Shown: one piece after another, positions 1 to 51,629 of the stretch | How the letters are laid out: every line of letters begins with the position of its first letter | Numbering within the stretch: position 1 is the stretch's first letter | Notes under the pieces: model-generated | What the model was told of the DNA's origin: nothing | Database searches by the model: none | Seen by the model: only the letters and a program-made list of their open reading frames with translations | Origin: an uncultured Clostridia bacterium | Lineage (GTDB): Bacteria > Bacillota > Clostridia > Christensenellales > UBA1242 | Assembly (NCBI GenBank): GCA_944372445.1 | Contig: CALVZE010000004.1 | Span: 1 to 58,585 of the forward strand | DNA: 58,585 bases | Reading direction: 5' to 3' | Program-made: the position numbers and the translations under genes

Positions 1-3000
1 CAAAGTTATATTCTTCAAGTCGAACATCTCTACCGTAATTTACAAAGACATCACCATAGGAATATGCGCTCAAAATACTACTTTTTTCCGTTGAAGTTTT
101 CGAAACACCAATGACGCCACCAACTGTAAGGTTATACCCTTCGCTAGCATCAAACACAACCTTTCCGCCAAAACCAGAAGTTCTAACTTTGTATGAAGTT
201 GTTTTCGCATCGGCAATGACACCACCAACCACAACATTTTCGCATTTTCTAAATTCGTATGAGCTTTTGTTTATATAGTTTGCAATTGCTAATTTGTTAA
301 CAGTTTCACTGCTTACACAACCAATGACACCACCGACATATATATCTCCAATTGTATTTCCAATAGTTACAGAATCATTTGAAGTCATTGGTTTCACATC
401 TTGACCCGTGCCAAGCTCAACAGATGAGGCTCCGCTCGTTGCACCAACAAGTCCGTAATAAATGTTTGTTTCAAATTGCGACCTCTCATTGGCAACCATA
501 TACAAAGTATTATTTGTTTCAAAAGATTCGGCGCTTAATGATCCATTTAAATTACCTATAAGCGAACCAATATATGCTTTGTCCCATGCAAATGTCCCAA
601 TATAATCTGGACCCGGCACGCGCACATTGGTTTTTACCGTGTTATCAATGGAAATTAAGTTCATTTCCGCCTGTCCAATAAGGCCTCCAATATAAGCCGT
701 CGTTGCACTGCCATTTTTTAATATAGTCCTTGGAGCCTCATGTGTTATTTTTCCTGCTACATTGAAGAAAACCTCACGCTCAACATTAGTGCTTATTGAC
801 ATAGTTCCACTGCCTGTCACTTTACCAAAACCTAAGCCTACATATTCCGTTCCTACACTTAGTCCTTGATTTATGGTTATGCCATTAATAGGATAGTTAT
901 CATCACTTAAAACACCTTCAATAACAGTGAAATTTGCTCGTCCAAAGTAAGCGCCAACATATAATTCTTTAAGAGCGTCGGCAACTATTGGGTCATTAAG
1001 CGAAATTGCAATATTATAGTCATTTTCAAGATACCTATTTAAAGATGTCATTCTAAATGTAGAAATATTGGCGCTGTCATCAATGGAGCTGTCGCCTGCA
1101 AGCAGTCCAAAGAATAATGAGTATGATTTATCCGAAGTTCTGTCAAAATCGACCTTAATTGTGGCTTTATTTATTAGACTTCCCGAGCTACCTTGCGTCT
1201 TTTCTTCTACTGCAAAGTTGATGTTAGAAATCGTCATGCCCTTATATGGCGAATTTTGAACCATTCTGCCCGCAAGAATTCCAAAATACTGACTTTCACC
1301 ATCCAAAAGGTCTGATGCTGAATCGTTGAAAAGAATATCACTTGCGTTAGTGTCAGCGTCTTTATCTCTTCTAAAGATGATGTTTATATTTAGGAAATCA
1401 GAAGATACCGCTTCTGCTGTAAGTAGTCCCGCCATGCCAGAGGTGTCAGCTTGCAAGGTGAGAGAGCTATTAAGGTGAATATCAAGATTGGTAAATGTTG
1501 CATTTGTCGCTGTTCTAGCCACCAAAAGCGAAGTGTAGCCTGACTTGGTTGTTTCTATCTCTTCATTGACATAGTAGATATTTAGACCATTCAACTCAAA
1601 GCCATAGTCGACGCTTTTGAAGATAGGTTGGTCTAGGATTAGTCCAACATTTTCGCCTGCCGTGCCACCGAGAACATACCCACCTTCACCTTTTACCACA
1701 ACATCTTGCGATGAGATAACGCCCTCACTTCGTGTCTTCATATATTCTTCATAGGAAATGAATTTTCCAGAGAAATTCGTTGCCCTGTCCATTGCGTCAA
1801 TAATCGGCTCGCCGTTTTCATAAGAACCGGTGAGATTGACATCTGTGTAGCCACCGCTTGGATTATCCGGTTCAATCATACCACGAACGACAACTGTCAG
1901 CGAAGAATTGCTGTGGATAGCCTCCATAACACTGCGTATGCTCTCTTCATAAGCATCCAAAAAGACAACATTTGTGCGAGGTGTCAAAACAATTCTTGGA
2001 TAAAGAGTGTTAACTTCATGCTCCCAATAGTTAGGGTCCCAATCATTTCTTAGGAAATATTGGTTCATCTTGGTATACCCTAGCTCCATTGTCGGCAAAT
2101 CTTTCATCCATTCAACTTGCATAATTCTGTCATTGGTAATTTGCGAAGTTACTGTTTCATCAAGGCTAGAATTTACCACTTTTATCAAGGAGTCAGTGTA
2201 ACCAAATATATAGTTATATCTAGTTGCTAGATTAACGGTCACATCGTTTTGAGCGAGATACAAAGCAGAAACGGCAATGCTGGTTGTTGGAGATTCTCCA
2301 CCTGCCAAACTGCCACCCGAAACAACATCATAGTGACCATTCAAATTATCTAAAAGATAGATATGAGATGGCGTTTTAAAAGATATGTTTCCGCCGTCCA
2401 TAACATCGGTTTCAAAACCACCAATAAGTCCAAAAAGTTTACTCATATTGTCAGTGTTGTTTTCATAATACGGCATGGTGTTGACATTTTTAAGCCCAAC
2501 AATGCTATCGCTTGTAATCAAGCCTATCGCTCCACCGCCCTGCATGTTTGTTGTTGTGTTTAAAACACCACTGAAATATGTTTCGTTCATGAAGTAAGAA
2601 ATTTGACTGCGAGATAGCATGGTTTCTGAGGTGTAATAATAATCAGCATTGACAGCACCCACAAGTCCGCCAAAATAACCTTCATAGTCATCATGATTTG
2701 ACATATTTGAAACGACATTCAATCTGTTGTATGAGGTTGTGATGTAACCACCACCAGCATAGCCTACAAGTCCGCCAACAAAGTAAGGATTATTGTCTTT
2801 GTTTACTTTGTCATTTTCTTCCGCTGTATAAGAGAAGATACTTGTTTGTCCACGCTCTACGGTTGTTCCGCCATTATAGTAAGAATACATATTTTCTTCA
2901 ATTGTGTCTTGCAGTTCTCTTGAATACTCTGCATAGCTAGCAAACAGTCCGCCATAACTTTCACCAACGATACCGCCAGCATATAGATTTTTAGCGGTGA

Positions 3001-6000
3001 TATAGGAAGGATTTGTCAAACCCATGTCAGCATCAAGCTCTAAGCCCATATCATAACCGATTGTGGTTGCACTTAGATAGCCGACAAATCCGCCAGCAAC
3101 CTCGCCGTAAATATTGATTGAATTATAAATTCTAATCGTTGAAAGGTCATAGCTACTATAATCCACAGAGCCCGTATATGTCACATTTTCTTCATCTTCA
3201 TACTGATAGATGTCAACATACCCCGCAAGTCCTCCTGCGTATGACAAAGAACTTATATTTCCTTTTAGTGAGCCACCAGCCTCTATTATCATCTTTAATG
3301 TTTCGCCGACCAAATTGTCGTTTGGAATAACTATACCATTGCCATTAGGTTCATACCTAACCTCTTTATTTTCATCGTAATAGTTTGCTGCGACATCGAT
3401 ATCTTCTATTATAATATCAGACAACTTTGAATTTCCAAACACAGCACCAACAACACCGCCAACGATATTATGTCCGTGGATAGAGATAGCCACAAGCATG
3501 TCTTCTTCATCTCTTGCGTCCACAGGATTTAAGGTTAAGCCCACAAGGCGAGAGTCTATGGCAGTGCCGGCAAGTGTTCCTACTATGCTTGCATTACCAT
3601 TATGAACAGAGGCAACTTCAAGCCCTAAATTCATAATGCTACCGTCTTTAATGCGTGCAAATAGTCCGTAGTTTTCTACAACACTTGAACTTTCCAAACT
3701 CATATTGTGAATGGTAAAGCCATTGCCGTCAAGAATACCCGTAAAGTCTTTTGTTGTGGTGGTAAGTCTTATCGCGTTATTATCATCAAGATTTTGGTCA
3801 ATCGTGCCAAAATCAATATCGCTCACAAAACGATAGTGACCAAACACCTCATAGTCATTATAATATTGCTTATAAGAAGATATTTCAACATCAGTCGCCT
3901 TGCCTGTTGCCTTTGCAAAGTCTTCCGAATTTCTTATTATGATAGGATTGTTGAGAGAGCCATATGAAAGGTCAACATACGCTCTTGTAGAGTAATCTCT
4001 AAGCGTGCTGTAAAAGAGTGAATATTCTTCTTCATTTTCTTCGTTATAGACAATATATCTATTTGAAAAAGCTATATGGTCAGCACTAGCAAGAGTTATA
4101 CCGTCATCGCCTCCCTGCATTGTCCAAATGCCGTCAAGCGCGCCTTCCGTTGATGTAAAGCTGAAACGATAATATATGCTTTCATCATTAACTCTTGAAA
4201 TTGCATATGCGCCTATATCATAATTCGATTGTATATCAATATTGCGCTCGTCACTGTAATAATAGCAGTAAGAAATCCCAACATCATTTTTATTTAAGCT
4301 GTTGCCTTTTTCATCAACGCCAGAGAAACCCATATTGTTGATGTATGAACTGTCTTCTTCTGACATCTTGACCTGCGCAAAGCACAGTGAAACGATGCCT
4401 TCTGTGTCGTTTTCATATATAAAGCCAGCCGACAGATAACTTCTTGCTTCGTCTATTTCTATGGCAAAATTAACATAAGAATTTTTGATTGTGCCGTTGT
4501 TGTAATAACTAAATCCGCCAACTTTACCGGTAGCTGAAATGGTCGAACCGTCATAGAAATATTCGTCGGAGCTATCAGACTGATAAGCGCCTTTAACATA
4601 AGATGTGTTGATATTGCCGTTGTTGTGTCTGACAAATCCAGCAGTTTCAGAGAGTGTTGTTCTCATGCTGTTAATTATCTCAACATTGCTTGCGAAGGAA
4701 GCGGAAATTGTGCCTGTGTTTTCACCTACAAAGCCTGAAACATAACCTTGACCTTGAACTGTAAAGAGAGAAAGCGACATTTCATCATAATATCTCTCGT
4801 CAAATTCTTCACGGATATATTTATATGTTTCACCGCCAACACGCGAATTTGTCACAACATTGTTATTAGTTAAAACAAAGCCTGCAATATTCACATTTTC
4901 AGGACTAATATCACCCGTGGTTAAATCGGTTGCTTGACCGCCATTACCTTTAACAAAATTTACTACAATACCGGTGTCACCCGACAATCTGCGAAGAGAA
5001 TTGTTTACATCATAGAAGGAAACAACATCTGAGTTATAGATTATACCATTGTTTACAAGAGCAAATCCGGCAATATTAATATTTGTGTAAGTGTTGACAT
5101 TGACAGTAAGTTGACCGCCGTTATAAACATTCACCCTAACATTTTTGATAGTTGTGTTTTCAGTAACCTCGCTGAATAGTGCAAGATTTAACTCGGTGGA
5201 AGAAGTATTGTAATTAAAGGAATTTAAGAAGATTGTATAGCCGTTACCGTCCAAGCTGTTTACATACTCAGTAGTTAAAGGAGTGTAATTTGTAAGCACG
5301 ATATCATTCATCAAAATATAATCGCCTGTTTCTAAATTGCCTTCACTATCTTCATTTCCGTTCATATATCGCAAGAATTCCTCTGCTGTATAGATAGGAA
5401 TAGGCACTTCTTCATCCGTCCAAATCTCCACTCTCACAACAAAATCATAATCGTATTCAAAGGTATTATTGCCAATAATTATAAAGGTTTTAAGTCTTAA
5501 AAGAACACTGCCCGATTGCTTGCCTTTAATTGTGATGCCATTACCAGATGTCCCACCGCTGAAATCAAAAGTGGAATTTTCAAGGAAGCTTCCTTGATTT
5601 ACATTATAGATAGCCGTCGCTGAGCCGTCACTGTTTACATAATAAAGCCTATCTCTTAGTGAAAGAGCCTCATATCTACCCGTCGATGTGTTGAATTTAC
5701 AGTTGATATAATAAGAATTAGCTTCATCTCTATAATAACCATCCGCTCTAAAATCACTGCGTTTTGCAAGTAATTCATTGACCGCTTTTACTTCATCGAC
5801 ATTTGCCGTGTTATAGTTATAACTCTCAGGATTGATTTGGTAGTCAAAGCTTAGAGTTGAGCTTGCATTGATATACGAATGAAAAGCATCATACTCCTGT
5901 CCGCCATAAATTATTGTGGAAGCGGAAGAAGCGACACCAACCTCTTCGGGATCTATTGTGAAATCTACAAGATAGATTGTGGCATAGCTATATTTATATG

Positions 6001-9000
6001 TCGCTCTGCCATTCACATAGCCAACAACTGAGGCTTCGACTGTAAACGAACCTGTGCTAGCACCATTTGCAAGTTTGGAAAGAACACTCGTGTTTATGTG
6101 TGCCGTGTAGGTAGTGTAAGTGCCATGGTCAACCGCTTCAATATTTGTCATTGTGATATAATCGCCATGACCGCTAAGGTATATGCTGTCTAAGGTTTGG
6201 TCGTTGTCTACTTCCACTGTGACGGTCGCCGAACTACTCTTAGCTAAAATAACCGAAGTTTCGCCGTTGACACGCACAACCGCCTCTTGTATGTAATCTA
6301 TCGAATATGAACTTGTCGAAGTTGTAAGCACCTCATCTCCGTCATAGAAGGTGAAAGTGATATTTATCACAGAGTTTGCTGTGAAGCTTGAAGAAACATA
6401 AAGACGGAAATAGTAAGTGCCGTTTGTTAAATCATCATCGGTTGGCGTCACCATAAGTCCGCGTTCTGTGGAGTTCAGCGAATTAAGCGACTCTGTTGTT
6501 GATGTGTTTATATAGTAACCATAGTATTCCTTATACATAAGTCTAGACAGGCTCACCGTTCCTGCTGAGGCGTTAGATAAAGTATATGTCACCTTAAAGT
6601 TAGACATATGAGCAAAATTAGGATTTACTTCAAGCGCTAGTATTGTTTCTGTTCCCGGAGTGATAGTTGAAGTAATTTGGTCGGTTCTAACATAATACCA
6701 TGTATTATTTCTAAGTTGTTTACCGCTAACCATGTAGTTTACAACATTGACATTCTCAATTGTTTGCTTTTGAACAAGCAGACTTATCGTTCTAAGATAT
6801 TTGTCGCTGTTTTTCTGACTTTCTGGACGAACAAAAATCTTTAAGTTATAATCTTTATCGACTTTATGCCTATAATTTCTGTTGACACCTATAAGCACGC
6901 TGTAACTTAAACTGCTTTCTGCCTTGGTGATAGAAATATCAAGCACTAAATTATCGTTTATCGTGATCGTTCCGTTATTCTTATCATTATATATAATATT
7001 ATATATATCATCTTCATAACCTATTTGAATGTTGATTTTGTCGTTCATATTATCTGACACTAAATCTGCCTTAAACATCTGCGTTTCATGAGGCTTTAAC
7101 CGTAGCGCTGTGCTATCAACCACAAGTGAATTAGCTCCATCGTAAGAGGAAAGAGAAATCGTCCTTTGATTGTTCTCTTTTATCGCCTCGGCGTAAGAAG
7201 AGTGTTTATCTTCAAGATTTTTTAATCCGAGTGAGATTTTCGCTGACACATAGCCGTTTTCACGGGCATTTTCTGCCTCATAGACAATCGTTCCACCTAC
7301 AACCTGAGAGGAGAAGTAAGTTAATGTTTCAGTCTCCTTTTCAAACACATTAGATTCATCAAATTCGTTATAATATTCATAATCGTCTAAGATAAGAGTG
7401 TATCTTTCGCCATAGAGATACAAGCTGTCATCTACAACAATGTTAATGCTTTGTGTATTATCAATGCCTGTTTGAATATTGACAATCTGATTGTCGCGAA
7501 TTTCGGCGCCGTTTATTGTTGTAACAAAGGTCGGAATAGCGTCTAAAATCATAATTTCAAAAGTTTTCGTTTCACTAAAATCAGTTCTACTTACGAGAGT
7601 TAAAACCACCGTTCTATCAACTAAATTATCTGTTGTTTTCTGAGTTATAATGGCAGAATTTGAGAAGGAAGCATATTCTTGATTGTTTACAGAAACAAGC
7701 AAGCTTTCCGCTTCTCTTTCGGTGACACCAAACAGCTCGCTAACTGAAATTGTGTAATAGCTTTTTAGCTCGCCATTTGCAATATCTCCCGTAATCGGCT
7801 CTTTGACATTATAGTTATATAAAATGCCATTTACACCATTATCAACCGCCAAACTTTTGCCGTCAACTGTATGAATGGTTTGAGCAACCGAAACTTTTGG
7901 TGTCTGCGTAACATTCTTCAAATAAGGATAGCCAAAGTTAATTTCAGTTGAAATATTTTCAATCTCCCAGATTGAACTGTCAAGCGACCAAACGGTATTT
8001 CCTAAACTTTCGTATGTCGCAGAATAAACATTACCATCACCAGCATAATAGGTAAATTTAGGATAATACAACCCCTCTTGCAAGTAGTAATTAGAAATAT
8101 AGGAATTTTTAATGGTAACGTTTGAATTTTGTGGCGCCAAAAGCGCATAATCGCCCATAAACGCAAAGGAAGTTTCAATCGCATTTGAACCTGTTGCATT
8201 GATTGTTCCTGCGATAGCGTTGAAAGCAATATTTGCAGAAATATTATTTGTATAACTACCAATCTTGCTACTACCAATGCCGTTATTGAGATTGAAAGCA
8301 TAGACATAGGAATCTCTTATAGTAGAATTCTTGCCATCAGCACCAAAGTAGCCAACAAGTCCGCCAACCGTGCCACCTAAAAATTTATTAGGCTTGTCAC
8401 CTGCAAAATTATAGAATTCCACGCCAGAGCCAGAAATCAAACCAAAGCTGTAACCTGCAACACCACCGACATAACTTGCTTCTGCCGTGTTCATGTTGAC
8501 GCCGTAGACTTTGCAATCTATGATATTTCCAGCGTTTACGCCTGCGATTGCACCCGCATAAGTGCCTTCCCCAAAATTATAACTTCCGCTGACACTGCTT
8601 GAAACATAATTTTTGCTTTCGTCATCATAAATGACATCAACATTGACATTTTCAACTGTCGGCTTTAAATATGTATTGTTAGAGATATTTATTGTTTCTC
8701 CTTTAATCTCTCTTGCAACAAATGCGCCTCCTGTGACTGAACCTTGAATATTTAAGTCTTTAATAACGCCTGAAAGTGAGTTAACCAAACTTTCACCGTT
8801 TATCGTAAGCATAACATTGTCGTTATCACCAAAAATCATACCTGAAAAATCAAAGCTTTTCCAATTATTTAAAGTGATATCATTCATCACGCGATAATAT
8901 AGTGTTGGATTTAGTTTTATCGCATTAAAATCTTCCTCGTTATAAACGCGAATGGCTGTTTCTTCACTTTTCCCGTCTGCAACCGTCACTCTTATTTGCA

Positions 9001-12000
9001 CGATAATGTCTTTATAATACACCTTTTCGTTGTCATTATTTAAGAAGTAGTTTAAAGCGCCGTTTTCACCATTTACCACTTCACTATACCAATTATGAAT
9101 TTCATCAAGTGGACGATAATAAGGTTCATATTCACCATCTACAAGTTTGTAAGTCAAAGCATTTTGCGTTCCTCTTTCAATCTTTATCATATCGGCAGGA
9201 AGTAGGTATAGATAACCCCAACCGCCTTGGCTTGTATCTCTAATAGACAAGGTAAAAGACTGACCTAGCGAAGAAGTTGTAATCTGTAAGATGTTTTGAT
9301 TGTTGTCCATAGGCTGATAATAGTATGTAAGCTCTTTATTATAAGCCTCATTTGGAGCAACCGACATATTGATTGTATATGATTTGTCAGTGCTATCGTC
9401 AGAGGCGAGATTGAGATAGACTTGAGAAGTTATGCCTCCATTCAACCACTCTATCTTTTCCACCCTATCGACTTGACGAATAGTCACATCTATTATTTCT
9501 GGGAAAATGGAATTTTTGAAAGCATATTGGATTTTAATCGCCTCGCCAACAACATTTTGGAATTTTGTCGATTGTGCGCTTATGTTAAATCTAAGTTCAT
9601 TGCCAACAATTCTAAAATTGGTCAAAAGTAGATAATCGTTGTAAATATATGATATCTCACTAAGCGAGAGCATTTTTTCAAAATTGTTTTCCTGTCCTAT
9701 TAAAGAAGCGTTTATTTCCTTATCATTATTTGTAACATAACTCGTGCTGGTGCCTAGAATAACCTTAAAATAAGACAAATCAGAGTATGTCGCCAGATTG
9801 TCGTCACCTCTTAAAGTCAAACTAACATCCACCGAACTTAAAGCCTCATCATTGACCGACAAGCTCTCTTTTGAAAGAAGAGTTGTTTCAGCTATATCGC
9901 TTCTAAGAGAGGTAACAGGATAAAAACTTTCTAATCTAAAAAATCTGACAAAAGTAACTGAATTATGTTCTTCGTCATAACCGAAGAAGCGAACCATAAT
10001 ATAGATAACAAACTGAGAATTGCTAACTCTAAGCTCGCCATTAGTAAAAGTAAAATAATTATAATCGTTGTTAGCGCCTGTATTAAAATTGTTGTATAAT
10101 CCACGATCTATTATGCCTTGAATGGTAAGCAACTCAAACTCTTCATCGCTAATCTGAGCAGCTGTGCTATCAAGGTAGAAGAACTGATATCCTGCTAAAA
10201 CATTAGAGGTATCTAATGTTGCATTTTGATAATCAAGTAAGAGCGAAACATTTGAGCCTGCTGAAACAAGTAAACTTGACAAACTCATATCTTCGTTGCC
10301 TTCGACTATCTCTCCGCCAGAGAGAACATAGCTTTGATTTTCGCTTTTTTCATCGTAAATGTTATTAGCGCCTTTGCTATTGTTATAAATTGACACTGTC
10401 GCAAGAGGATTGAACGCCTCAATTGTCACACTGTTGGAATTTAGACCTGATTTATGATTGAAGTTAAAGGAGGTAAAATCTCTAAACTCAACACCGTTTA
10501 AACTTACGGTTACCTTTACAATCATATACTGCTCTTCAACCTGCCCTGAACGCCTGTATTCTTCCATAGAAATATTGAAATTTTTATTATTGCTTTTTTC
10601 TAACGAAAGTCCTTCAATGGATGAAATACCACTGATTTTAAAATAGTATTCCTTCGCATCAGCAACACCAAGCGCATTTCTAGCTGAGGAAATATATTTA
10701 GTTGCCGAATAATCATCTGTGGAGCCAGTCTCTTCTCCTTGATCGTCAAAGAATACCTCTTCAACTTCCATAGTAGAACCCATGGTTATATGATAGAGAT
10801 TTGCTGTGATAGTTTCTGTGGCAATAGCAGGATTTCCAGTTGCTATAAAGTTTATTTCAAAGCCGTTAATCGAATTTTTTCCGCTCAAATCACCACTTCT
10901 AAAATATAGCGCTGTGCCGTTTGGAATTTCTTTTGTTATATAAGTAGACGCCGAACCGTCTACGCGTGACCACTCAATTTCTACGCCTGTGTTTCTATTG
11001 TAGATATGAAGAACATCATCCACACTATCAATATTAGTCAATCCACCGATATTCACTCTCACCTGATAGGTGCTGTTAGTTAAAGGAATGTCATCAGGAT
11101 AAACATTGCAAGAAAGAAGATAGCCTTGAGAGTTATAATACTCCGAATATAGGTCGATGACTTGTCCACCAACATCATTACCAGCACTATCTCTAATTAC
11201 AACGCTTTCAGGAACAAAAGAAAGATTTAAAATTGCTTCTTTTTCTAGTTCATCTCTTGTGTTAATTGAATAGATATATTTGCTGTAACCTAACTCTAAT
11301 CCAAAATATAACTCGCCAAAACGCTTTTCCATAGTGAAGTCATCATAAAGAGCATTGATAGTAAAATCAATAGTCAATGCAGAATTTACACCATCATAGC
11401 TTCTTTCAGTAATTGTAAACTTGAAATATTCTCTCGTGTCCACCTCTCTGCCACTGTCTTTAAGATATGCTTTTGGAGTAATTGTCATCTTTTCATCAAA
11501 AGTATTTATAACAACTTGACCTGTAATCTCAGAAGGAGCATCATCGGTTGTTGAGCTATTGTTTCTAACAAGGTCAATTTCGACATTTTTTCCTTCGCCA
11601 AGCAAAGAGTTTCCATTAATTGAAAAAGCCCCAATTGTAGAATTTTCGATAACTTGAAAGTCTATCTCTTGCGACAACTCTTCATTGCTTTGCACAATGG
11701 CGTGAACGGTAATTTTAGGGTTAGTATAGCCATTATATACATAAAGTTTATTGTCTTCTATCTTCGCAGTTGTCACAACCTCTGTTCCATTACTTTGAGC
11801 AAACTCTGTCACATATTCACCCGTGTTCACATCTTTTAACATCCAAACAACATCTTTGACATTTGCATCAGCTGGTGCAAAAGATATGTATTTATCAACA
11901 TCAAGAAATGTTCCACTACCTTCCTTAACAACAAAGAGTGAAGTGCGTCCGTCAGCGTCATTTTGGTCGATTATGCTTGTGGAGGTAGGAATTGTCAACA

Positions 12001-12358
12001 CGCTGACATCAAGATAATCATAAACGCTTTGGTTTGCCATAGCATAAATTTTAACCTTTGCATTGCCAGACTTAATTGCTTTAAGAGTGACAGCATAAGA
12101 AGAAGCGTTCTTTTTAGATGTGGAATATGTAACAACATCACTGCCAGACTCTACCTGAACACCGATGCCGTCACTTGAACCATTTAGCGTCACTTCAACC
12201 ACATCCTCTTGATAGTTATCTTTATCAGTGTCGTTAGTGTAAATTTCCATGTAGTTAGTAGATAACGAAAGAGAAGGATTTTCTTTTGAGCAACTCGCTA
12301 AAAGCATCCCTCCAAAAAGCATGAACACGCTAAGAATTCCTAGTGCAATTTTTCTCAT
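1..12358 (-). CDS. Giant surface lipoprotein (>4,119 aa, 3' end beyond window) with N-terminal beta-rich/Ig-like region and repeated GLUG-like beta-helical modules
   Basis: ATG at 12358 after RBS TAAGGAGG. N-terminus MRKIALGILSVFMLFGGMLLASC (lipobox LAS-C). I translated the frame and spot-checked it at 2-80, 2402-2500 and 9122-9240 with no stop. The ORF track shows no long complete ORF here, consistent with one ORF running off the edge. Repeated motifs: YVGGVAGYSFG, VGGLVGYFG, VSGFVGENTG, IVGGVVGAVFG, FVGGLVGYAGG, SLDGNGYTI, ILDGNGFTI. Confidence 0.9.
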   Translation of the reverse strand, partial: MRKIALGILSVFMLFGGMLLASCSKENPSLSLSTNYMEIYTNDTDKDNYQEDVVEVTLNGSSDGIGVQVESGSDVVTYSTSKKNASSYAVTLKAIKSGNAKVKIYAMANQSVYDYLDVSVLTIPTSTSIIDQNDADGRTSLFVVKEGSGTFLDVDKYISFAPADANVKDVVWMLKDVNTGEYVTEFAQSNGTEVVTTAKIEDNKLYVYNGYTNPKITVHAIVQSNEELSQEIDFQVIENSTIGAFSINGNSLLGEGKNVEIDLVRNNSSTTDDAPSEITGQVVINTFDEKMTITPKAYLKDSGREVDTREYFKFTITERSYDGVNSALTIDFTINALYDDFTMEKRFGELYFGLELGYSKYIYSINTRDELEKEAILNLSFVPESVVIRDSAGNDVGGQVIDLYSEYYNSQGYLLSCNVYPDDIPLTNSTYQVRVNIGGLTNIDSVDDVLHIYNRNTGVEIEWSRVDGSASTYITKEIPNGTALYFRSGDLSGKNSINGFEINFIATGNPAIATETITANLYHITMGSTMEVEEVFFDDQGEETGSTDDYSATKYISSARNALGVADAKEYYFKISGISSIEGLSLEKSNNKNFNISMEEYRRSGQVEEQYMIVKVTVSLNGVEFRDFTSFNFNHKSGLNSNSVTIEAFNPLATVSIYNNSKGANNIYDEKSENQSYVLSGGEIVEGNEDMSLSSLLVSAGSNVSLLLDYQNATLDTSNVLAGYQFFYLDSTAAQISDEEFELLTIQGIIDRGLYNNFNTGANNDYNYFTFTNGELRVSNSQFVIYIMVRFFGYDEEHNSVTFVRFFRLESFYPVTSLRSDIAETTLLSKESLSVNDEALSSVDVSLTLRGDDNLATYSDLSYFKVILGTSTSYVTNNDKEINASLIGQENNFEKMLSLSEISYIYNDYLLLTNFRIVGNELRFNISAQSTKFQNVVGEAIKIQYAFKNSIFPEIIDVTIRQVDRVEKIEWLNGGITSQVYLNLASDDSTDKSYTINMSVAPNEAYNKELTYYYQPMDNNQNILQITTSSLGQSFTLSIRDTSQGGWGYLYLLPADMIKIERGTQNALTYKLVDGEYEPYYRPLDEIHNWYSEVVNGENGALNYFLNNDNEKVYYKDIIVQIRVTVADGKSEETAIRVYNEEDFNAIKLNPTLYYRVMNDITLNNWKSFDFSGMIFGDNDNVMLTINGESLVNSLSGVIKDLNIQGSVTGGAFVAREIKGETINISNNTYLKPTVENVNVDVIYDDESKNYVSSSVSGSYNFGEGTYAGAIAGVNAGNIIDCKVYGVNMNTAEASYVGGVAGYSFGLISGSGVEFYNFAGDKPNKFLGGTVGGLVGYFGADGKNSTIRDSYVYAFNLNNGIGSSKIGSYTNNISANIAFNAIAGTINATGSNAIETSFAFMGDYALLAPQNSNVTIKNSYISNYYLQEGLYYPKFTYYAGDGNVYSATYESLGNTVWSLDSSIWEIENISTEINFGYPYLKNVTQTPKVSVAQTIHTVDGKSLAVDNGVNGILYNYNVKEPITGDIANGELKSYYTISVSELFGVTEREAESLLVSVNNQEYASFSNSAIITQKTTDNLVDRTVVLTLVSRTDFSETKTFEIMILDAIPTFVTTINGAEIRDNQIVNIQTGIDNTQSINIVVDDSLYLYGERYTLILDDYEYYNEFDESNVFEKETETLTYFSSQVVGGTIVYEAENARENGYVSAKISLGLKNLEDKHSSYAEAIKENNQRTISLSSYDGANSLVVDSTALRLKPHETQMFKADLVSDNMNDKINIQIGYEDDIYNIIYNDKNNGTITINDNLVLDISITKAESSLSYSVLIGVNRNYRHKVDKDYNLKIFVRPESQKNSDKYLRTISLLVQKQTIENVNVVNYMVSGKQLRNNTWYYVRTDQITSTITPGTETILALEVNPNFAHMSNFKVTYTLSNASAGTVSLSRLMYKEYYGYYINTSTTESLNSLNSTERGLMVTPTDDDLTNGTYYFRLYVSSSFTANSVINITFTFYDGDEVLTTSTSSYSIDYIQEAVVRVNGETSVILAKSSSATVTVEVDNDQTLDSIYLSGHGDYITMTNIEAVDHGTYTTYTAHINTSVLSKLANGASTGSFTVEASVVGYVNGRATYKYSYATIYLVDFTIDPEEVGVASSASTIIYGGQEYDAFHSYINASSTLSFDYQINPESYNYNTANVDEVKAVNELLAKRSDFRADGYYRDEANSYYINCKFNTSTGRYEALSLRDRLYYVNSDGSATAIYNVNQGSFLENSTFDFSGGTSGNGITIKGKQSGSVLLRLKTFIIIGNNTFEYDYDFVVRVEIWTDEEVPIPIYTAEEFLRYMNGNEDSEGNLETGDYILMNDIVLTNYTPLTTEYVNSLDGNGYTIFLNSFNYNTSSTELNLALFSEVTENTTIKNVRVNVYNGGQLTVNVNTYTNINIAGFALVNNGIIYNSDVVSFYDVNNSLRRLSGDTGIVVNFVKGNGGQATDLTTGDISPENVNIAGFVLTNNNVVTNSRVGGETYKYIREEFDERYYDEMSLSLFTVQGQGYVSGFVGENTGTISASFASNVEIINSMRTTLSETAGFVRHNNGNINTSYVKGAYQSDSSDEYFYDGSTISATGKVGGFSYYNNGTIKNSYVNFAIEIDEARSYLSAGFIYENDTEGIVSLCFAQVKMSEEDSSYINNMGFSGVDEKGNSLNKNDVGISYCYYYSDERNIDIQSNYDIGAYAISRVNDESIYYRFSFTSTEGALDGIWTMQGGDDGITLASADHIAFSNRYIVYNEENEEEYSLFYSTLRDYSTRAYVDLSYGSLNNPIIIRNSEDFAKATGKATDVEISSYKQYYNDYEVFGHYRFVSDIDFGTIDQNLDDNNAIRLTTTTKDFTGILDGNGFTIHNMSLESSSVVENYGLFARIKDGSIMNLGLEVASVHNGNASIVGTLAGTAIDSRLVGLTLNPVDARDEEDMLVAISIHGHNIVGGVVGAVFGNSKLSDIIIEDIDVAANYYDENKEVRYEPNGNGIVIPNDNLVGETLKMIIEAGGSLKGNISSLSYAGGLAGYVDIYQYEDEENVTYTGSVDYSSYDLSTIRIYNSINIYGEVAGGFVGYLSATTIGYDMGLELDADMGLTNPSYITAKNLYAGGIVGESYGGLFASYAEYSRELQDTIEENMYSYYNGGTTVERGQTSIFSYTAEENDKVNKDNNPYFVGGLVGYAGGGYITTSYNRLNVVSNMSNHDDYEGYFGGLVGAVNADYYYTSETMLSRSQISYFMNETYFSGVLNTTTNMQGGGAIGLITSDSIVGLKNVNTMPYYENNTDNMSKLFGLIGGFETDVMDGGNISFKTPSHIYLLDNLNGHYDVVSGGSLAGGESPTTSIAVSALYLAQNDVTVNLATRYNYIFGYTDSLIKVVNSSLDETVTSQITNDRIMQVEWMKDLPTMELGYTKMNQYFLRNDWDPNYWEHEVNTLYPRIVLTPRTNVVFLDAYEESIRSVMEAIHSNSSLTVVVRGMIEPDNPSGGYTDVNLTGSYENGEPIIDAMDRATNFSGKFISYEEYMKTRSEGVISSQDVVVKGEGGYVLGGTAGENVGLILDQPIFKSVDYGFELNGLNIYYVNEEIETTKSGYTSLLVARTATNATFTNLDIHLNSSLTLQADTSGMAGLLTAEAVSSDFLNINIIFRRDKDADTNASDILFNDSASDLLDGESQYFGILAGRMVQNSPYKGMTISNINFAVEEKTQGSSGSLINKATIKVDFDRTSDKSYSLFFGLLAGDSSIDDSANISTFRMTSLNRYLENDYNIAISLNDPIVADALKELYVGAYFGRANFTVIEGVLSDDNYPINGITINQGLSVGTEYVGLGFGKVTGSGTMSISTNVEREVFFNVAGKITHEAPRTILKNGSATTAYIGGLIGQAEMNLISIDNTVKTNVRVPGPDYIGTFAWDKAYIGSLIGNLNGSLSAESFETNNTLYMVANERSQFETNIYYGLVGATSGASSVELGTGQDVKPMTSNDSVTIGNTIGDIYVGGVIGCVSSETVNKLAIANYINKSSYEFRKCENVVVGGVIADAKTTSYKVRTSGFGGKVVFDASEGYNLTVGGVIGVSKTSTEKSSILSAYSYGDVFVNYGRDVRLEEYNF

Positions 12359-12429
12359 GACTCCTCCTTAGATAATATTTGCATTAAGCAAATAAAATAT
12401 TTAGATAAATTCGGCATAATATATAATAT

Positions 12430-12457
12430 ATTATAAACTAATAATTTTTTAAATCAA
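12430..12457 (-). promoter_or_regulatory. Putative sigma-A promoter of the giant lipoprotein gene
   Basis: TTGATT-16 nt-TATAAT on the minus strand about 70 nt upstream of the start codon. The region is AT-rich, so a chance match is possible. Confidence 0.45.
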
Positions 12458-12702
12458 AATATTTTAACAAAAATAATTCAAAGTTACGAAATTTATTTTT
12501 TTATTTTAATTTAATAAACATATAAAATTATTTCCTTTTGTCGACCGAATGCAAAAACATGCACATTAAAAAATACAAGAAAAAATAAATAAAATAGCAA
12601 AAATTTATTAAAAAACAATAAAAAATAGCCTTTTTTTAATTAAAAAATGATTTTTTGGGCTATTTTTTATAATTTTTATTTTTTAAAATAATATCACAAA
12701 AA

Positions 12703-12969
12703 TTAAGCATCATTTATAAGTCTTTTCTCTTCAAACTTTTTTCGTGTTGACTCGCCACCTCGAATATGCTTCTCTTCAAAATGTTTATCAAGTATTTTCT
12801 TAATTTTTTCATATAAAACATAATCCACTTTTCTCAATCTGATTGAAAGGTCATAATGAACGGTGCTTTTAGAGAGGTGGAACTTTTTTGCACTTTCTCT
12901 TATCGTGTCATGCGTCTTTAAAACATACTCCCCTAGTTCTCGCGTTCGGCTAACTATATAAGGCTTCAT
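12703..12969 (-). CDS. spoIIID: Sporulation transcription factor SpoIIID
   Basis: MKPYIVSRTRELGEYVLKTHDTIRESAKKFHLSKSTVHYDLSIRL...HIRGGESTRKK matches the SpoIIID HTH (SKSTVH-D, HIRGG). Start moved to 12969 on the basis of RBS GGGAGG. Confidence 0.93.
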   Translation of the reverse strand: MKPYIVSRTRELGEYVLKTHDTIRESAKKFHLSKSTVHYDLSIRLRKVDYVLYEKIKKILDKHFEEKHIRGGESTRKKFEEKRLINDA

Positions 12970-12989
12970 AAAAAAATCCTCCCACATAC

Positions 12990-13018
12990 AAAATATGAGA
13001 GAATTTGTCGAAATATGA
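12990..13018 (-). promoter_or_regulatory. Sigma-E type promoter of spoIIID
   Basis: Minus strand reads TCATATT-14 nt-CATATTTT, matching the sigma-E consensus and spacing. spoIIID is a known sigma-E target. Confidence 0.65.
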
Positions 13019-13028
13019 TAAAGTTTGT

Positions 13029-13259
13029 CTATTTTTTACACTTTTCGATAAGCTCAGCAACCTCTTTGACAGTCTTGACCTGATTAATTTGGTCATCAGG
13101 AATAGTTACGCCATACTCATCTTCAAGCGTCATCAACATCTCTATGATATCAAGTGAATCAGCGCCCAAATCTTCTAAGATGTTTGCATTATCGCCGATT
13201 GTTTTTGTGTCAATTCCAAGTTGTTCTGCAAGTAATTCTTTTACTTTTTCTATAATCAT
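13029..13259 (-). CDS. acpP: Acyl carrier protein
   Basis: 76 aa, acidic, with LGADSLD phosphopantetheine attachment motif. Confidence 0.95.
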   Translation of the reverse strand: MIIEKVKELLAEQLGIDTKTIGDNANILEDLGADSLDIIEMLMTLEDEYGVTIPDDQINQVKTVKEVAELIEKCKK

Positions 13260-13416
13260 TATATTGCCCTCCGATAGGATTATAATATCATAATACCTTA
13301 TTAAAAATCAACTTATTTTACGATAATTTCAACATTTAATTAAATATTTTTAATATTTATCAAAATATATAGATTATTGTAAAATATTTCATTGTTTTTA
13401 AATTAAGCTTTTAATA

Positions 13417-13447
13417 AAAGACCTGCAAGCTATTTGCAAGTCTTTTT
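13417..13447 (-). terminator. Probable intrinsic terminator after the M23 gene
   Basis: Imperfect inverted repeat AAAAGAC(C)TGCAA / TTGCAAGTCTTTT flanked by A/T tracts. Confidence 0.5.
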
Positions 13448-13466
13448 AGTTTTTAAATCGTTAAAA

Positions 13467-14027
13467 TTACTTGTTGCCTAAATCTAAATAATTGTTTGGG
13501 TCAACTTCTACGCCGTCTTTAAAAAGAACAAAGTGAAGAGCTGTTTCGTCATCAAATTCTCTGCCTGCCGAATTTGAAGCATCGCCTATTTTGTCGCCTT
13601 TTTTAACCTCATCGCCCTCGCTTACAAGCACATTGTCGTTCAATGAAGAATAGACGCTGACAAAACCATTATCATGAGTAATTTCCACGATATTACCTTC
13701 CAAGCTGTTGCTAGAAACACTTGTTACCGTTCCATCAAGCACAGACATGACACTTGTGTCAGTTGAAGATGTAAAATCTATGCCGAGGTGAATTTCCCAT
13801 CTATTTAAAATGTCGTTGTATTGCAATTTTGTGTCTGAATAATCCTTAATTATTTCCGCATTATTCATAGGCGTCTGAAAGGTTAAGTCAGTGGTCGAAA
13901 CCTCACTCGCCTTACCTCCAACCGTCAACGCAACAGTCAAGGCTATTGCCACCGTAAACACCCCTGCAAGAGCAAGCGCGCCGTATCTTTTGAAAAAGTT
14001 TTTAAATTTATTTGTTTTTATTTCCAT
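13467..14027 (-). CDS. SpoIIQ-like M23/LytM family membrane protein
   Basis: N-terminal TM helix, HLGID (HxxxD) motif, GNIVEITHDNGFVSVYSSL, and ALHF in place of HxH. It lies between ywmB and spoIIID, as spoIIQ does in Firmicutes. Start moved to 14027 on the basis of RBS GGAGG. Confidence 0.8.
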   Translation of the reverse strand: MEIKTNKFKNFFKRYGALALAGVFTVAIALTVALTVGGKASEVSTTDLTFQTPMNNAEIIKDYSDTKLQYNDILNRWEIHLGIDFTSSTDTSVMSVLDGTVTSVSSNSLEGNIVEITHDNGFVSVYSSLNDNVLVSEGDEVKKGDKIGDASNSAGREFDDETALHFVLFKDGVEVDPNNYLDLGNK

Positions 14028-14093
14028 GTTTTCCTCCATGCCTATGTTATTGTCACAAAATTTAAAGTTTAAACATGAATTTTTCAAATTTTT

Positions 14094-14546
14094 TTAATAA
14101 CCCGTGAGTATCAATGGAAATCCAGCTATAACTTCGTTCCCCTTAAGGGCAAGTTGCAAGTTGACCTTTTTGCCGTCAACTATGACGGCGTCTTGATAGA
14201 AAGGTGAGTATGCATAGATTAATCTAATCTCCTGCACTTCGCTTTCTTCTATAATTGTAGCTTTCAAAATTTTCAAAATTTCATCAGCACTTACATTCTT
14301 TAAATAAAACTCTAAGCCCGTAACCGGCACTTTTTTCACCATGTTCAGCCCCTCCTCTTTTGTGCAATAAACAAAATCAACATCTCCGCAAGAGATTATT
14401 TCTCCCTCGTTTAAGCTATCGTCCTTCACAATTAAACATACCCTATATGTTTCAGCAAGCGTAAATAAAGGATTATAGGTATCCTTAGCAAAATAAGATG
14501 CACCTATCATCAAGGCAATAAAAATAAATACTAAAATTTTTTTCAT
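14094..14546 (-). CDS. YwmB-like (TATA-box-binding fold) protein
   Basis: N-terminal hydrophobic anchor and C-terminus GKKVNLQLALKGNEVIAGFPLILTGY resembling YwmB. Synteny with spoIIQ/spoIIID supports this. Confidence 0.65.
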   Translation of the reverse strand: MKKILVFIFIALMIGASYFAKDTYNPLFTLAETYRVCLIVKDDSLNEGEIISCGDVDFVYCTKEEGLNMVKKVPVTGLEFYLKNVSADEILKILKATIIEESEVQEIRLIYAYSPFYQDAVIVDGKKVNLQLALKGNEVIAGFPLILTGY

Positions 14547-51327: not shown

Positions 51328-51629
51328 GCTTTTATTATGCCAAAAATTAAAAATTTAATTAAATTTTAATTAAATTATTAAAAATCAATAAAAATTACAC
51401 TATTTTTAATAAAAAATTAATTAAAAAATGGTTTTAAACTAATTTTTTGCATTACAAAATGGTATTTTTGGATTTTTTCGATATTTTATTATTAAAAAAT
51501 AGTTTATGATGAATTTTTATTTTTTCTTTATATGTATTAAATATTAATATATATTTATAATAAATTTAATCTATTTATTTTGAAATATTTTTAGAGTGTG
51601 CTAAAATTATCTTAATAAGAGAGGTGTTT

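Follow-up and report, generated by a model that had tools for sequence, protein, structure and literature searches.

A giant lipoprotein of divergent beta-helix modules with a variable glycine-rich tip, probably an adhesive fibre, in reduced-genome gut Clostridia

The question raised by this locus is what kind of protein is encoded by a gene that runs off the edge of its contig without meeting a stop codon, and what such a protein may do for a gut bacterium with a very small genome. The window, meaning the whole stretch of DNA analysed here (58,585 nucleotides), is the entire contig C4. An open-ended listing of reading frames places on its minus strand, at positions 2..12358, a single stop-free frame of 4,119 codons that begins with ATG and has its 3′ end open at the contig edge; all features of the gene described below lie on the same strand. 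The default ORF list does not contain the gene, because no stop codon is present in the window. The original prediction had singled out this unlisted frame and had assigned to its product a minimum of about 450 kDa, and both claims are borne out, the window-encoded portion having a computed mass of 454 kDa.

The full-length form of the protein, P0002, counts 6,788 aa (745 kDa), and the window portion is 99.7% identical to it. In the same genome, P0002 residues 6148-6788 (641 aa) are encoded at 100% identity at C5:3-1925. In other words, the copy is split, with its N-terminal 4,119 aa on C4 and its C-terminal 641 aa at the start of C5, while the middle (P0002 4122-6147, about 2,026 aa) is missing from the assembly of the source genome. 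Comparison of the contig ends revealed no overlap that would bridge the gap. A 5′-open ORF of 2,073 aa on C19 was considered as the missing middle and rejected, as it is not that portion. Stops or frameshifts splitting the frame had been named in advance as evidence against the prediction; the orthologous frames are uninterrupted in all 12 genomes sampled from the genus and span 6,059-7,387 aa. The gene is interrupted by the assembly alone: it is real and intact, with 6,788 codons, and the window holds its front 60%. It takes up 1.8% of the 1.12-Mb genome, is free of nucleotide-level repeats and encodes an acidic protein (pI 4.4). Assemblies break at this gene exactly where strains differ, and it is therefore systematically truncated or missed in the annotation of MAGs.

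The protein opens with a lipoprotein signal peptide (aa 1-22, MRKIALGILSVFMLFGGMLLAS; 12293..12358), recognised from sequence features and from the conservation of its lipobox. Specifically, a basic n-region (MRK) is followed by a 17-residue h-region (IALGILSVFMLFGGMLL) and by the lipobox L-A-S-C23, in agreement with the pattern [LVI][ASTVI][GAS]C expected after a basic n-region and a hydrophobic h-region. Cys23 (12290..12292), with which the mature protein would begin and which is the predicted site of lipidation, does not vary in alignment A1, and the lipobox (LLAS/C here) is conserved in nearly all of about 120 homologues; a missing lipoprotein signal would have spoken against the prediction, but the signal is conserved family-wide. 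The genome also encodes Lgt (PF01790, C3:94397-95143, 221 bits) and the signal peptidase II LspA (PF01252, C8:33797-34204, 116 bits), both scoring above cut-off. At the other end, no LPXTG motif was found in the full-length protein, whose C-terminus ends in ...GLTAQGAPNWTE, and no second hydrophobic segment was found besides the signal peptide; the combination by which sortase-anchored adhesins are recognised, namely a C-terminal LPXTG, a hydrophobic segment and a basic tail, is not seen. The earlier view of a lipid-anchored rather than sortase-anchored protein holds, with a lipobox at the N-terminus and no LPXTG, and lipid anchoring at Cys23 is predicted.

Beyond the anchor, the full-length protein is built of six related beta-helix modules (M1-M6) and of a seventh, shorter C-terminal beta-helix segment (C1), alternating with regions that match no known domain. 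The membrane-proximal region (aa 24-1130; 8969..12289) is non-repetitive and, by profile searches, free of known domains, being possibly Ig-like in part: for the beta-sandwich-like character that the original prediction gave to roughly the first 1,100 aa, the only trace is weak Ig_NUP210 (Ig-like) matches at aa 82-120 (E 0.002-0.03). Its profile found no match in the PDB and hhalign found no internal repeats in it, and the stretch at aa 1000-1200 is well conserved. Module M1 (aa 1131-1490; 7889..8968) was delimited by hhalign and carries a degenerate head motif at about aa 1136-1190 followed by GGxxG rungs. It is followed by a spacer, I1-I2 (aa 1491-2310; 5429..7888), in which neither Pfam nor hhalign detects a domain or repeat; these roughly 820 aa between M1 and M2, devoid of module similarity, had gone unmentioned in the original prediction. 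Module M2 (aa 2311-2795; 3974..5428), with the head PIPIYTAEEF...DYILMNDIVL...LDGNGYTI, is defined by AF2 and Foldseek, shows the strongest conservation of any part and is modelled mostly at pLDDT 85-98. Module M3 (aa 2796-3300; 2459..3973), supported by AF2, Foldseek and hhalign, has the head NPIIIRNSEDF...YRFVSDIDF...LDGNGFTI, and then GG[LVIF][AV]G rungs. A linker (aa 3301-3460; 1979..2458) bears a conserved W/H/P patch of invariant A1 columns (F3435, W3440, W3445, H3447, P3454) and leads to module M4 (aa 3461-4119+; 2..1978), recognised by hhalign, which has GGxIG rungs, lacks a DGNG head and is cut by the contig end; the final 100 or so residues of the window portion already diverge from P0002. 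Altogether, the window holds DGNG heads at aa 2370 and 2877 and eleven GG[LVIF][VIA]G pentapeptides.

M1-M6 and C1 are mutually homologous, with hhalign probabilities of 86-98% for the strongest pairs. In particular, M1 reaches 98.4% with M2 and 98.3% with M6, M3 reaches 98.1% with M6 and 97.5% with M4, and M4 reaches 97.1% with M6. The module HMMs barely cross-hit, and the modules are ancient and very divergent, not recent tandem repeats. The claim of several GLUG/beta-helix modules stands, while the count of about three does not, since profile-profile comparison gives four in the window (M1-M4).

The fold of M2 and M3 is well modelled. An AF2 model of aa 2301-3300, which covers M2 and M3, consists of right-handed beta-helices (pLDDT 87.5, pTM 0.87), and Foldseek relates it at probability 1.00 to 3n6z and to the IgA1-protease beta-helix (6xja, 6xjb, 7uvl). 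These matches have only modest E-values (1.6e-3 to 5e-2; TM 0.15-0.41), the query having two domains and the targets one; other matches include an L. reuteri SRRP adhesin and pectate lyases. As to the GLUG label, Pfam GLUG (PF07581) is matched in the window only in M1 (aa 1294-1313), at 15.5 bits against a cut-off of 20.5, and in M2-M3 of seven family members it was not found. Outside the window, M6 of the same protein matches GLUG at 21.9 bits, above the same cut-off, and M2 is aligned with this GLUG-bearing module at an hhalign probability of 90.2%. It is on the predicted fold, on the homology of the window modules to M6 and on the above-threshold match of M6 that the label rests, and the assignment of the window modules to GLUG / IgA1-protease-type beta-helices is in this way supported by modelling and homology. 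The whole window protein gave no Pfam match at E <= 0.01; Pfam, NCBIfam and PHROGs, applied to the protein, its segments and its alignments, returned two GLUG matches (one of them sub-threshold), the weak Ig_NUP210 and nothing else; and the PDB, searched with the protein sequence as well as with the M2-M3 and N-terminal profiles, returned nothing. About half of the protein length, tip included, is absent from every domain library searched.

The C-terminal end of the protein differs from the rest in composition and in variability. A block at about aa 5100-6140 differs between lineages and is followed by C1 (about aa 6141-6340) and by a glycine-rich tip of about 450 aa (about aa 6341-6788), which has no match to other known domains. 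In an alignment of five close relatives, the constant motifs GDGANGxNG, NGGNGGKAG, DGVGGNGGNGADG, GGGGGGAYGLD, SALGGSGGAGGLGLIYY and TAAGGGSAG are separated by indel-rich hypervariable segments, and the last 35 or so residues are constant. Identity to distant relatives amounts to 40-50% at aa 2200-3200 and to about 10% at aa 5200-6788. Strains that are 97-98% identical over aa 1-3800 are only 36-48% identical over aa 6401-end, and the tips of P0003 and P0006 share 79% identity, although elsewhere the P0006 lineage shares no more than 86% (aa 1-3800) and 62% (aa 3801-5000) with P0003. Judging from these identities, the tip is a mosaic between strains and is exchanged between lineages by recombination. 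In an exhaustive search of 1.84 billion representatives, the tip gave 40 matches, and the matches listed are giant homologues or shorter proteins aligned mostly at an end; a length-restricted search for stand-alone relatives returned five probable fragments. The tip would accordingly seem to be without relatives outside the family. AF2 modelled the 641-aa C-terminal fragment poorly beyond residue ~300 (pLDDT <50), and Foldseek with this tip model returned nothing at E < 0.15.

The gene has at least 215 homologues, the 120 listed being mostly 5.9-6.9 kaa long, and 354 loci were counted in species-representative genomes, all from uncultured gut Clostridia. It is present in each of the 12 sampled genomes of the genus, and strong matches are confined to a family of reduced genomes (about 1 Mb) within the order, probably UBA1242. 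Of the 101 genomes of the family, only 41 gave a match at E <= 1e-20, so that the gene need not be universal there, although the first-pass filter may overlook divergent copies. The source genome, 99.7% complete at 1.12 Mb, devotes about 10% of its length to ORFs of at least 2,000 aa. UBA1242-type Clostridia, uncultured and widespread in the gut, have genomes of about 1 Mb and have been described as lacking biosynthesis, as seemingly unable to make most building blocks and as probably partner-dependent (PMC12306168). In chickens, their relative abundance rises with age and is negatively associated with body weight (PMC13155120).

Taken together, we infer that the gene product is probably a long adhesive fibre that is anchored by a lipid and binds through a variable tip. 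According to this model, the protein of about 745 kDa would be exported by Sec and then processed by Lgt and LspA, the lipid on Cys23 becoming its sole hold on the outer face of the cytoplasmic membrane. From there it would project outward as a long fibre, perhaps 100-200 nm in length. A point against the model is that a fibre held in this way would have to traverse the wall, beyond which its outer part would be exposed. The order outward from the membrane would be aa 24-1130, M1-M6 together with the unrelated regions, the block at about aa 5100-6140, C1 and the glycine-rich tip. The rigid beta-helices would serve as stalk and spacers and the variable tip as the ligand-contacting end, by which these auxotrophic gut bacteria of about 1 Mb might be attached to a partner cell, to host mucus or to particles. 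The earlier suggestion of an adhesin or a surface scaffold agrees with this reading. A single conserved gene that occupies 1.8% of the genome and has a recombining tip is therefore the most obvious candidate for the contact apparatus of UBA1242-type Clostridia and, as such, a possible handle for fishing out partners, for enrichment and cultivation and for strain typing. A bolder proposal, which we regard as speculative and rather doubtful, is that UBA1242 bacteria live as epibionts or parasites and use the fibre as their organelle of attachment to a partner: a lipid-anchored stalk of about 100 nm would carry a lineage-only glycine-lattice tip, whose recombination-reshuffled hypervariable loops would set the docking target of each strain, be it a partner cell or a host surface.

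The hypervariability of the tip fits escape from phages or host IgA no less than it fits ligand specificity. The fibres might then form a protective coat or decoy, a dense layer standing in for an S-layer, with a tip that varies under targeting by phages or secretory IgA. In favour of this are the mosaic tip swapped between lineages, the acidic (pI 4.4), large protein conserved in every sampled genome of the genus and the share of the genome (about 10%) given over to ORFs of 2,000 aa or more. However, the searches brought up no SLH, CWB2 or other domain for S-layer anchoring or self-assembly, and constant motifs framing variable segments resemble receptor-binding tips, for example that of phage gp38 (PMC3157838). 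This explanation is unlikely as the principal one, and it is compatible with the adhesin reading.

Less plausible still is a surface-tethered array of carbohydrate-active enzymes, in which at least one beta-helix module would be a polysaccharide lyase or hydrolase releasing nutrients. Foldseek does match the helices to PL6 alginate lyases, a fucoidan lyase, pectate lyases, pectin methylesterases and GH55 (E 4e-3 to 0.5), but these matches have low probabilities (0.1-0.7), whereas the non-catalytic helix of the IgA1 proteases reaches 1.00. Moreover, neither Pfam nor NCBIfam revealed a CAZyme or any other domain, the invariant columns are nearly all Gly, Asn, aromatic or structural residues, and UBA1242 genomes are reported to be missing the standard sugar transporters (PMC12306168). 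The search for catalysis was extended to the full-length protein, in which neither a protease domain nor Peptidase_M26_C nor any other catalytic domain was recognised by Pfam or NCBIfam; a C-terminal catalytic domain, the finding that was to count against the prediction, did not emerge. The HExxH motif, not seen in the visible part by the original prediction, is indeed missing from the window and from all 6,788 aa.

The chromosomal setting brings in sporulation. The order spoIIID > giant gene > radC-like is fixed, and the neighbourhood comprising an M23 peptidase gene (SpoIIQ-like), acpP and spoIIID ahead of the giant gene is kept across genera. A sporulation-linked envelope protein, destined for the spore surface and produced by either the mother cell or the forespore, would fit this position directly after spoIIID and the SpoIIQ-like gene, and the UBA1242 family retains sporulation genes (PMC12306168). 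Against this stands the 344-nt AT-rich spacer between spoIIID and the giant gene, with a sigma-70-like promoter candidate (TTGATT-16-TATAAT; 12430..12457) some 70 nt ahead of the ATG, which has 10 of 12 consensus matches and is a consensus match only, of a kind frequent in this AT-rich spacer. In addition, gene order is generally frozen in such small genomes, and the Sec/lipobox signal points to the cytoplasmic membrane. A role on the spore is very improbable. The same spacer contains, as read from the sequence, a strong ribosome-binding site, the Shine-Dalgarno element AAGGAGGAG (12361..12369), 2 nt before the ATG at 12358; no riboswitch or leader RNA was matched by Rfam upstream of the gene.

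A contact-dependent polymorphic toxin, with a conserved stalk, a strain-specific C-terminal toxin and a downstream immunity gene, is hardly credible either. A conserved bulk with a divergent C-terminus does resemble CdiA and Rhs proteins, but the variable part keeps a common glycine-rich scaffold and an invariant end of about 35 residues, and there is therefore no whole-domain swap after a demarcation motif. The downstream genes, a 257-aa radC-like gene and a 130-aa ORF, are conserved between species and not variable, and neither Pfam nor NCBIfam nor PADLOC-independent scans turned up a toxin domain. Membership among CdiA / Rhs / MafB-like toxins was rejected, neither the tip nor the downstream genes having the corresponding features. 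Finally, there is virtually no chance that the protein is an M26-type IgA1 metalloprotease relative cleaving host immunoglobulin: the closest fold is the helix of the S. pneumoniae and Gemella IgA1 proteases and one orthologue carries a precomputed Peptidase_M26_N match, but the 6,788 aa contain no HExxH, no Peptidase_M26_C or any protease domain and no LPXTG, and the M26-family enzyme reading is refuted because the zinc site is missing.

Among known systems, the best fold matches of the adhesive fibre proposed here are the non-catalytic, GLUG-bearing helix at the N-terminus of Gram-positive M26 IgA1 metalloproteases (S. pneumoniae 6xja/6xjb/7uvl; G. haemolysans 7uvk) and the Bacteroides ovatus BACOVA_03286 domain (3n6z). 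As in these domains, the chain is predicted to form a right-handed parallel beta-helix whose rungs have G-G-hydrophobic-x-G turns; no match to those chains is seen at sequence level, even with a 69-sequence profile. The giant protein also differs from the M26 proteases in lacking a protease domain, HExxH and LPXTG, in its predicted anchoring by a lipid and not by sortase, and in the number of helices, six to seven per protein versus one.

A beta-solenoid fold match also extends to the binding region of L. reuteri SRRP (5nxk) and to S. pneumoniae PfbA (4mr0). Ebh and SasG-type fibres are further giant Gram-positive surface adhesins. Like giant adhesins of this kind, the protein is very long, acidic and modular, with solenoid or Ig-like modules that would hold a binding region away from the cell. 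Those adhesins rely on C-terminal sortase/LPXTG anchoring or on aSec export and on near-identical tandem repeats, whereas here the lipid anchor is N-terminal and the modules are divergent, a combination that makes for an unusual giant surface design in a monoderm.

The tip itself invites comparison with gp38, the tip adhesin of the long tail fibres of T-even-like phages, in which recombining hypervariable segments set on a Gly-rich scaffold determine specificity (PMC3157838, PMC12032242). Homology of the tip to phages was not detected by tblastn against 50,697 phage genomes nor in PHROGs. With these searches and Foldseek negative and the AF2 model poor, the assignment of the tip as a polyglycine-II / gp38-like domain was dropped and the design analogy kept. 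The likeness is of design only: the gp38-type alternation is present in the tip, conserved glycine-rich motifs displaying hypervariable segments. Unlike gp38, these 450 or so residues end a cellular protein of 6,788 aa, and if the partner-attachment reading were true, the fibre would represent the cellular counterpart of a phage receptor-binding protein.

The giant gene of the window (2..12358, minus strand) was detected by allowing open-ended frames in the ORF listing; the sole long ORF in positions 1-14000, it comprises 4,119 codons and runs from an ATG start, without a stop, off the contig end. AAGGAGGAG precedes the start codon, and a 344-nt AT-rich spacer upstream contains a sigma-70-like promoter candidate; no Rfam element was found upstream of the gene. 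The protein begins with MRKIALGILSVFMLFGGMLLAS followed by C, which is predicted to be a textbook lipoprotein signal. This lipobox is common to essentially all 120 homologues retrieved, Cys23 is an invariant alignment column, and Lgt and LspA are encoded in the same genome, in support of the lipid anchor of the original prediction. The anticipated size of about 450 kDa agrees with the 454 kDa computed for the window part, and the quoted motifs lie where they had been placed (DGNG heads at aa 2370 and 2877, and eleven GG[LVIF][VIA]G turns). The finding was real and correctly read. As had been reported, the window part contains no HExxH; the full-length protein (6,788 aa) shows no LPXTG, second hydrophobic segment or HExxH. 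An M26 protease is ruled against by the absent zinc site.

Among 5.8 billion proteins searched, at least 215 are homologues, and nearly all of the 120 listed measure 5,900-6,900 aa. The best match, P0002 (6,788 aa, 745 kDa, pI 4.4), shares 99.7% identity with the 4,119 residues of the window. Since P0002 residues 6148-6788 are encoded at 100% identity elsewhere in the genome (contig C5, bases 3-1925), the giant gene is split by the assembly (37 contigs, 1.12 Mb, rated 99.7% complete), of which the window is one entire contig, C4. About 2,026 middle codons are absent from every contig, and no overlap was found between contig ends. The window frame departs from P0002 already in its final ~100 residues. 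Specifically, positions 2-300 (minus strand) show several substitutions and two small indels against residues 4015-4121 of P0002, which is otherwise 100% identical, and these differences point to a mixture of strains where the assembly breaks. Beyond about residue 3800 the divergence between strains rises steeply, which probably explains why assemblers break there. At the far end, a second giant frame (51624-58583, plus strand; 2,320 aa, GTG start, Sec-type signal) is open at the contig end, so that both contig ends stop inside giant genes; Pfam at E <= 0.01 gave no match on this frame.

The architecture was examined by segmenting a 21-sequence full-length alignment and comparing segments profile against profile. 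Beta-helix modules were placed at aa 1131-1490 (M1), 2311-2795 (M2), 2796-3300 (M3), 4201-4620 (M5) and 4621-5110 (M6, outside the window), together with a module lacking the DGNG head at 3461-4200 (M4) and a short beta-helix module at 6141-6340 (module C1). M1-M6 and C1 are mutually homologous, the strongest pairs reaching 86-98% probability; the same comparison found no internal or mutual similarity in the N-terminal 1,100 aa, the 820-aa M1-M2 spacer, residues 5111-6140 and the C-terminal tip (6341-6788). The window therefore holds four modules, M1 to M4; multiple related modules had been foreseen correctly, their number (about three) had not. The modules are ancient copies; an HMM built from one of them hardly picks up the rest. 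The beta-sandwich proposed for the first 1,100 aa is putative, the searches there yielding no more than weak Ig_NUP210 hints.

An AlphaFold2 model of residues 2301-3300, built on an alignment of 69 sequences from public genomes, has a pLDDT of 87.5 and a pTM of 0.87 and shows the short-strand periodicity of a beta-helix. Foldseek against the PDB returned only right-handed beta-helices: at probability 1.00 a Bacteroides 'putative IgA1 protease' domain (3n6z) and the S. pneumoniae IgA1 protease helix (6xja, 6xjb, 7uvl), at 0.98 the Gemella enzyme 7uvk, with the SRRP adhesin of L. reuteri and pectate or alginate lyases next. The E-values are modest (1.6e-3 to 5e-2). Pfam matched neither the whole window protein nor M2-M3 of seven diverse members, and a PDB search with the 69-sequence profile gave no match. 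Pfam GLUG is sub-threshold in M1 and above threshold only in M6; the predicted GLUG label, without a direct match in the window, is therefore justified by the modelled fold and the homology to M6.

Conservation declines from the middle of the protein to its C-terminus. Compared with distant relatives, aa 2200-3200 are 40-50% identical and aa 5200-6788, where gaps are many, about 10%. Four proteins that are 97-98% identical over residues 1-3800 share 90-96% (3801-5000), about 79-91% (5001-6400) and 36-51% (6401-end). In the glycine-rich tip, constant motifs (GDGANGxNG, NGGNGGKAG, DGVGGNGGNGADG, GGGGGGAYGLD, SALGGSGGAGGLGLIYY, TAAGGGSAG) and a constant ending (FFSRNDMVTSGGYYGTAQGL..APNWTE) frame indel-rich hypervariable segments. 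The ending, the last ~35 residues (P0002 ~6750-6788, C5:~1810-1925), is almost invariant between strains, the preceding ~350 residues being hypervariable; it may serve as folding nucleus, recombination anchor or sorting signal. The tips of two other homologues, P0003 and P0006, are 79% identical, against only 86% (aa 1-3800) and 62% (aa 3801-5000) outside the tip; lineages thus exchange tip segments. Neither Pfam, NCBIfam and PHROGs nor tblastn against 50,697 phage genomes matched the tip. A length-restricted search retrieved only five probable fragments, and HMMER, run exhaustively over 1.84 billion representatives, only 40 matches; the listed ones are either giant homologues or shorter proteins whose match lies mostly at one end. 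The tip thus appears to be without relatives outside the family. Its AlphaFold2 model is confident for the first ~290 residues only, and Foldseek with this model found nothing.

The genome's eight ORFs of 2,000 aa or more (12,732, 4,390, 4,281, 4,122, 3,735, 3,619, 2,338 and 2,073 aa) make up 9.9% of its 1.12 Mb and include ORFs on contigs C1 (e.g. 85807-124002, minus strand), C6, C9 and C19. Lipoboxes are also found in the 3,735-aa (C6:1589-12793) and 3,619-aa (C9:4228-15084) proteins, the former being a paralogue with 25% identity over about 950 aa of M2-M3. The module type is shared by at least seven other large proteins: this paralogue and at least six more, matched by the M3 HMM, with head and GGxxG rungs (C7:5548-8025, C6:25950-30329, C2:30032-32512, C17:5183-8881, C9:24182-37024, C19:1-6219).

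Relatives are encoded at 354 loci in species-representative genomes, all of them MAGs of uncultured Clostridia recovered from the guts of chicken, rabbit, deer, mouse and human. Among them are Ca. Caccovivens and UBA11517, of family UBA1242, order Christensenellales (PMC8035907). Across 301 sampled genomes of that order, strong matches are confined to the window's own family; the other families sampled (genomes of 1.3-3.2 Mb) lack the gene. All 12 sampled genomes of the window's genus carry it in uninterrupted frames of 6,059-7,387 aa. A search of 101 genomes of the family matched 41 at E <= 1e-20. The gene has a fixed position, in the order mfd, orf655, LPG-synthase-like, orf177, DUF1779, M23 peptidase, acpP, spoIIID, giant gene, radC-like and a 130-aa ORF; two further species of the genus share this order, and its upstream part is found in another genus too. 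The M23 peptidase (206 aa, TTG start) and the DUF1779 protein (13467-14546, minus strand) lie upstream in the orientation of the giant gene. Between the peptidase gene and the giant gene, in an order conserved in relatives, are two genes which we take from their sequences to encode a SpoIIID-like regulator (12703-12969, minus strand, 88 aa) and an acyl carrier protein (13029-13259, minus strand, 76 aa), both under the 100-aa ORF cut-off used. Together, M23 peptidase, DUF1779 and spoIIID resemble a sporulation neighbourhood that this ~1-Mb genome has retained.

The simplest interpretation is a lipid-anchored surface fibre exported by Sec, in which rigid beta-helix modules and regions without known relatives would hold a variable, recombining tip out from the cell, at the fibre's outer end. 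A helix of about 3,200 aa, rising 4.8 Å with each ~22-residue coil, would span 60-75 nm, and the other ~3,500 aa could contribute about as much again. According to PMC12306168, the family lacks biosynthetic pathways and standard transporters and probably depends on partners, so that attachment to a partner cell or host surface is the most likely role. A shield or decoy, though less probable, would be compatible with such an adhesin. A spore-surface protein, to which the gene neighbourhood would point, is unlikely, and an enzyme array appears doubtful; the conserved tip scaffold and downstream genes argue against a polymorphic toxin. For the surface fibre, the tip resembles phage gp38 (PMC3157838, PMC12032242) in design only, a polyglycine-II fold being conjectural. 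The giant lipoprotein family is unpublished and would fall within the known class of giant bacterial surface fibres.
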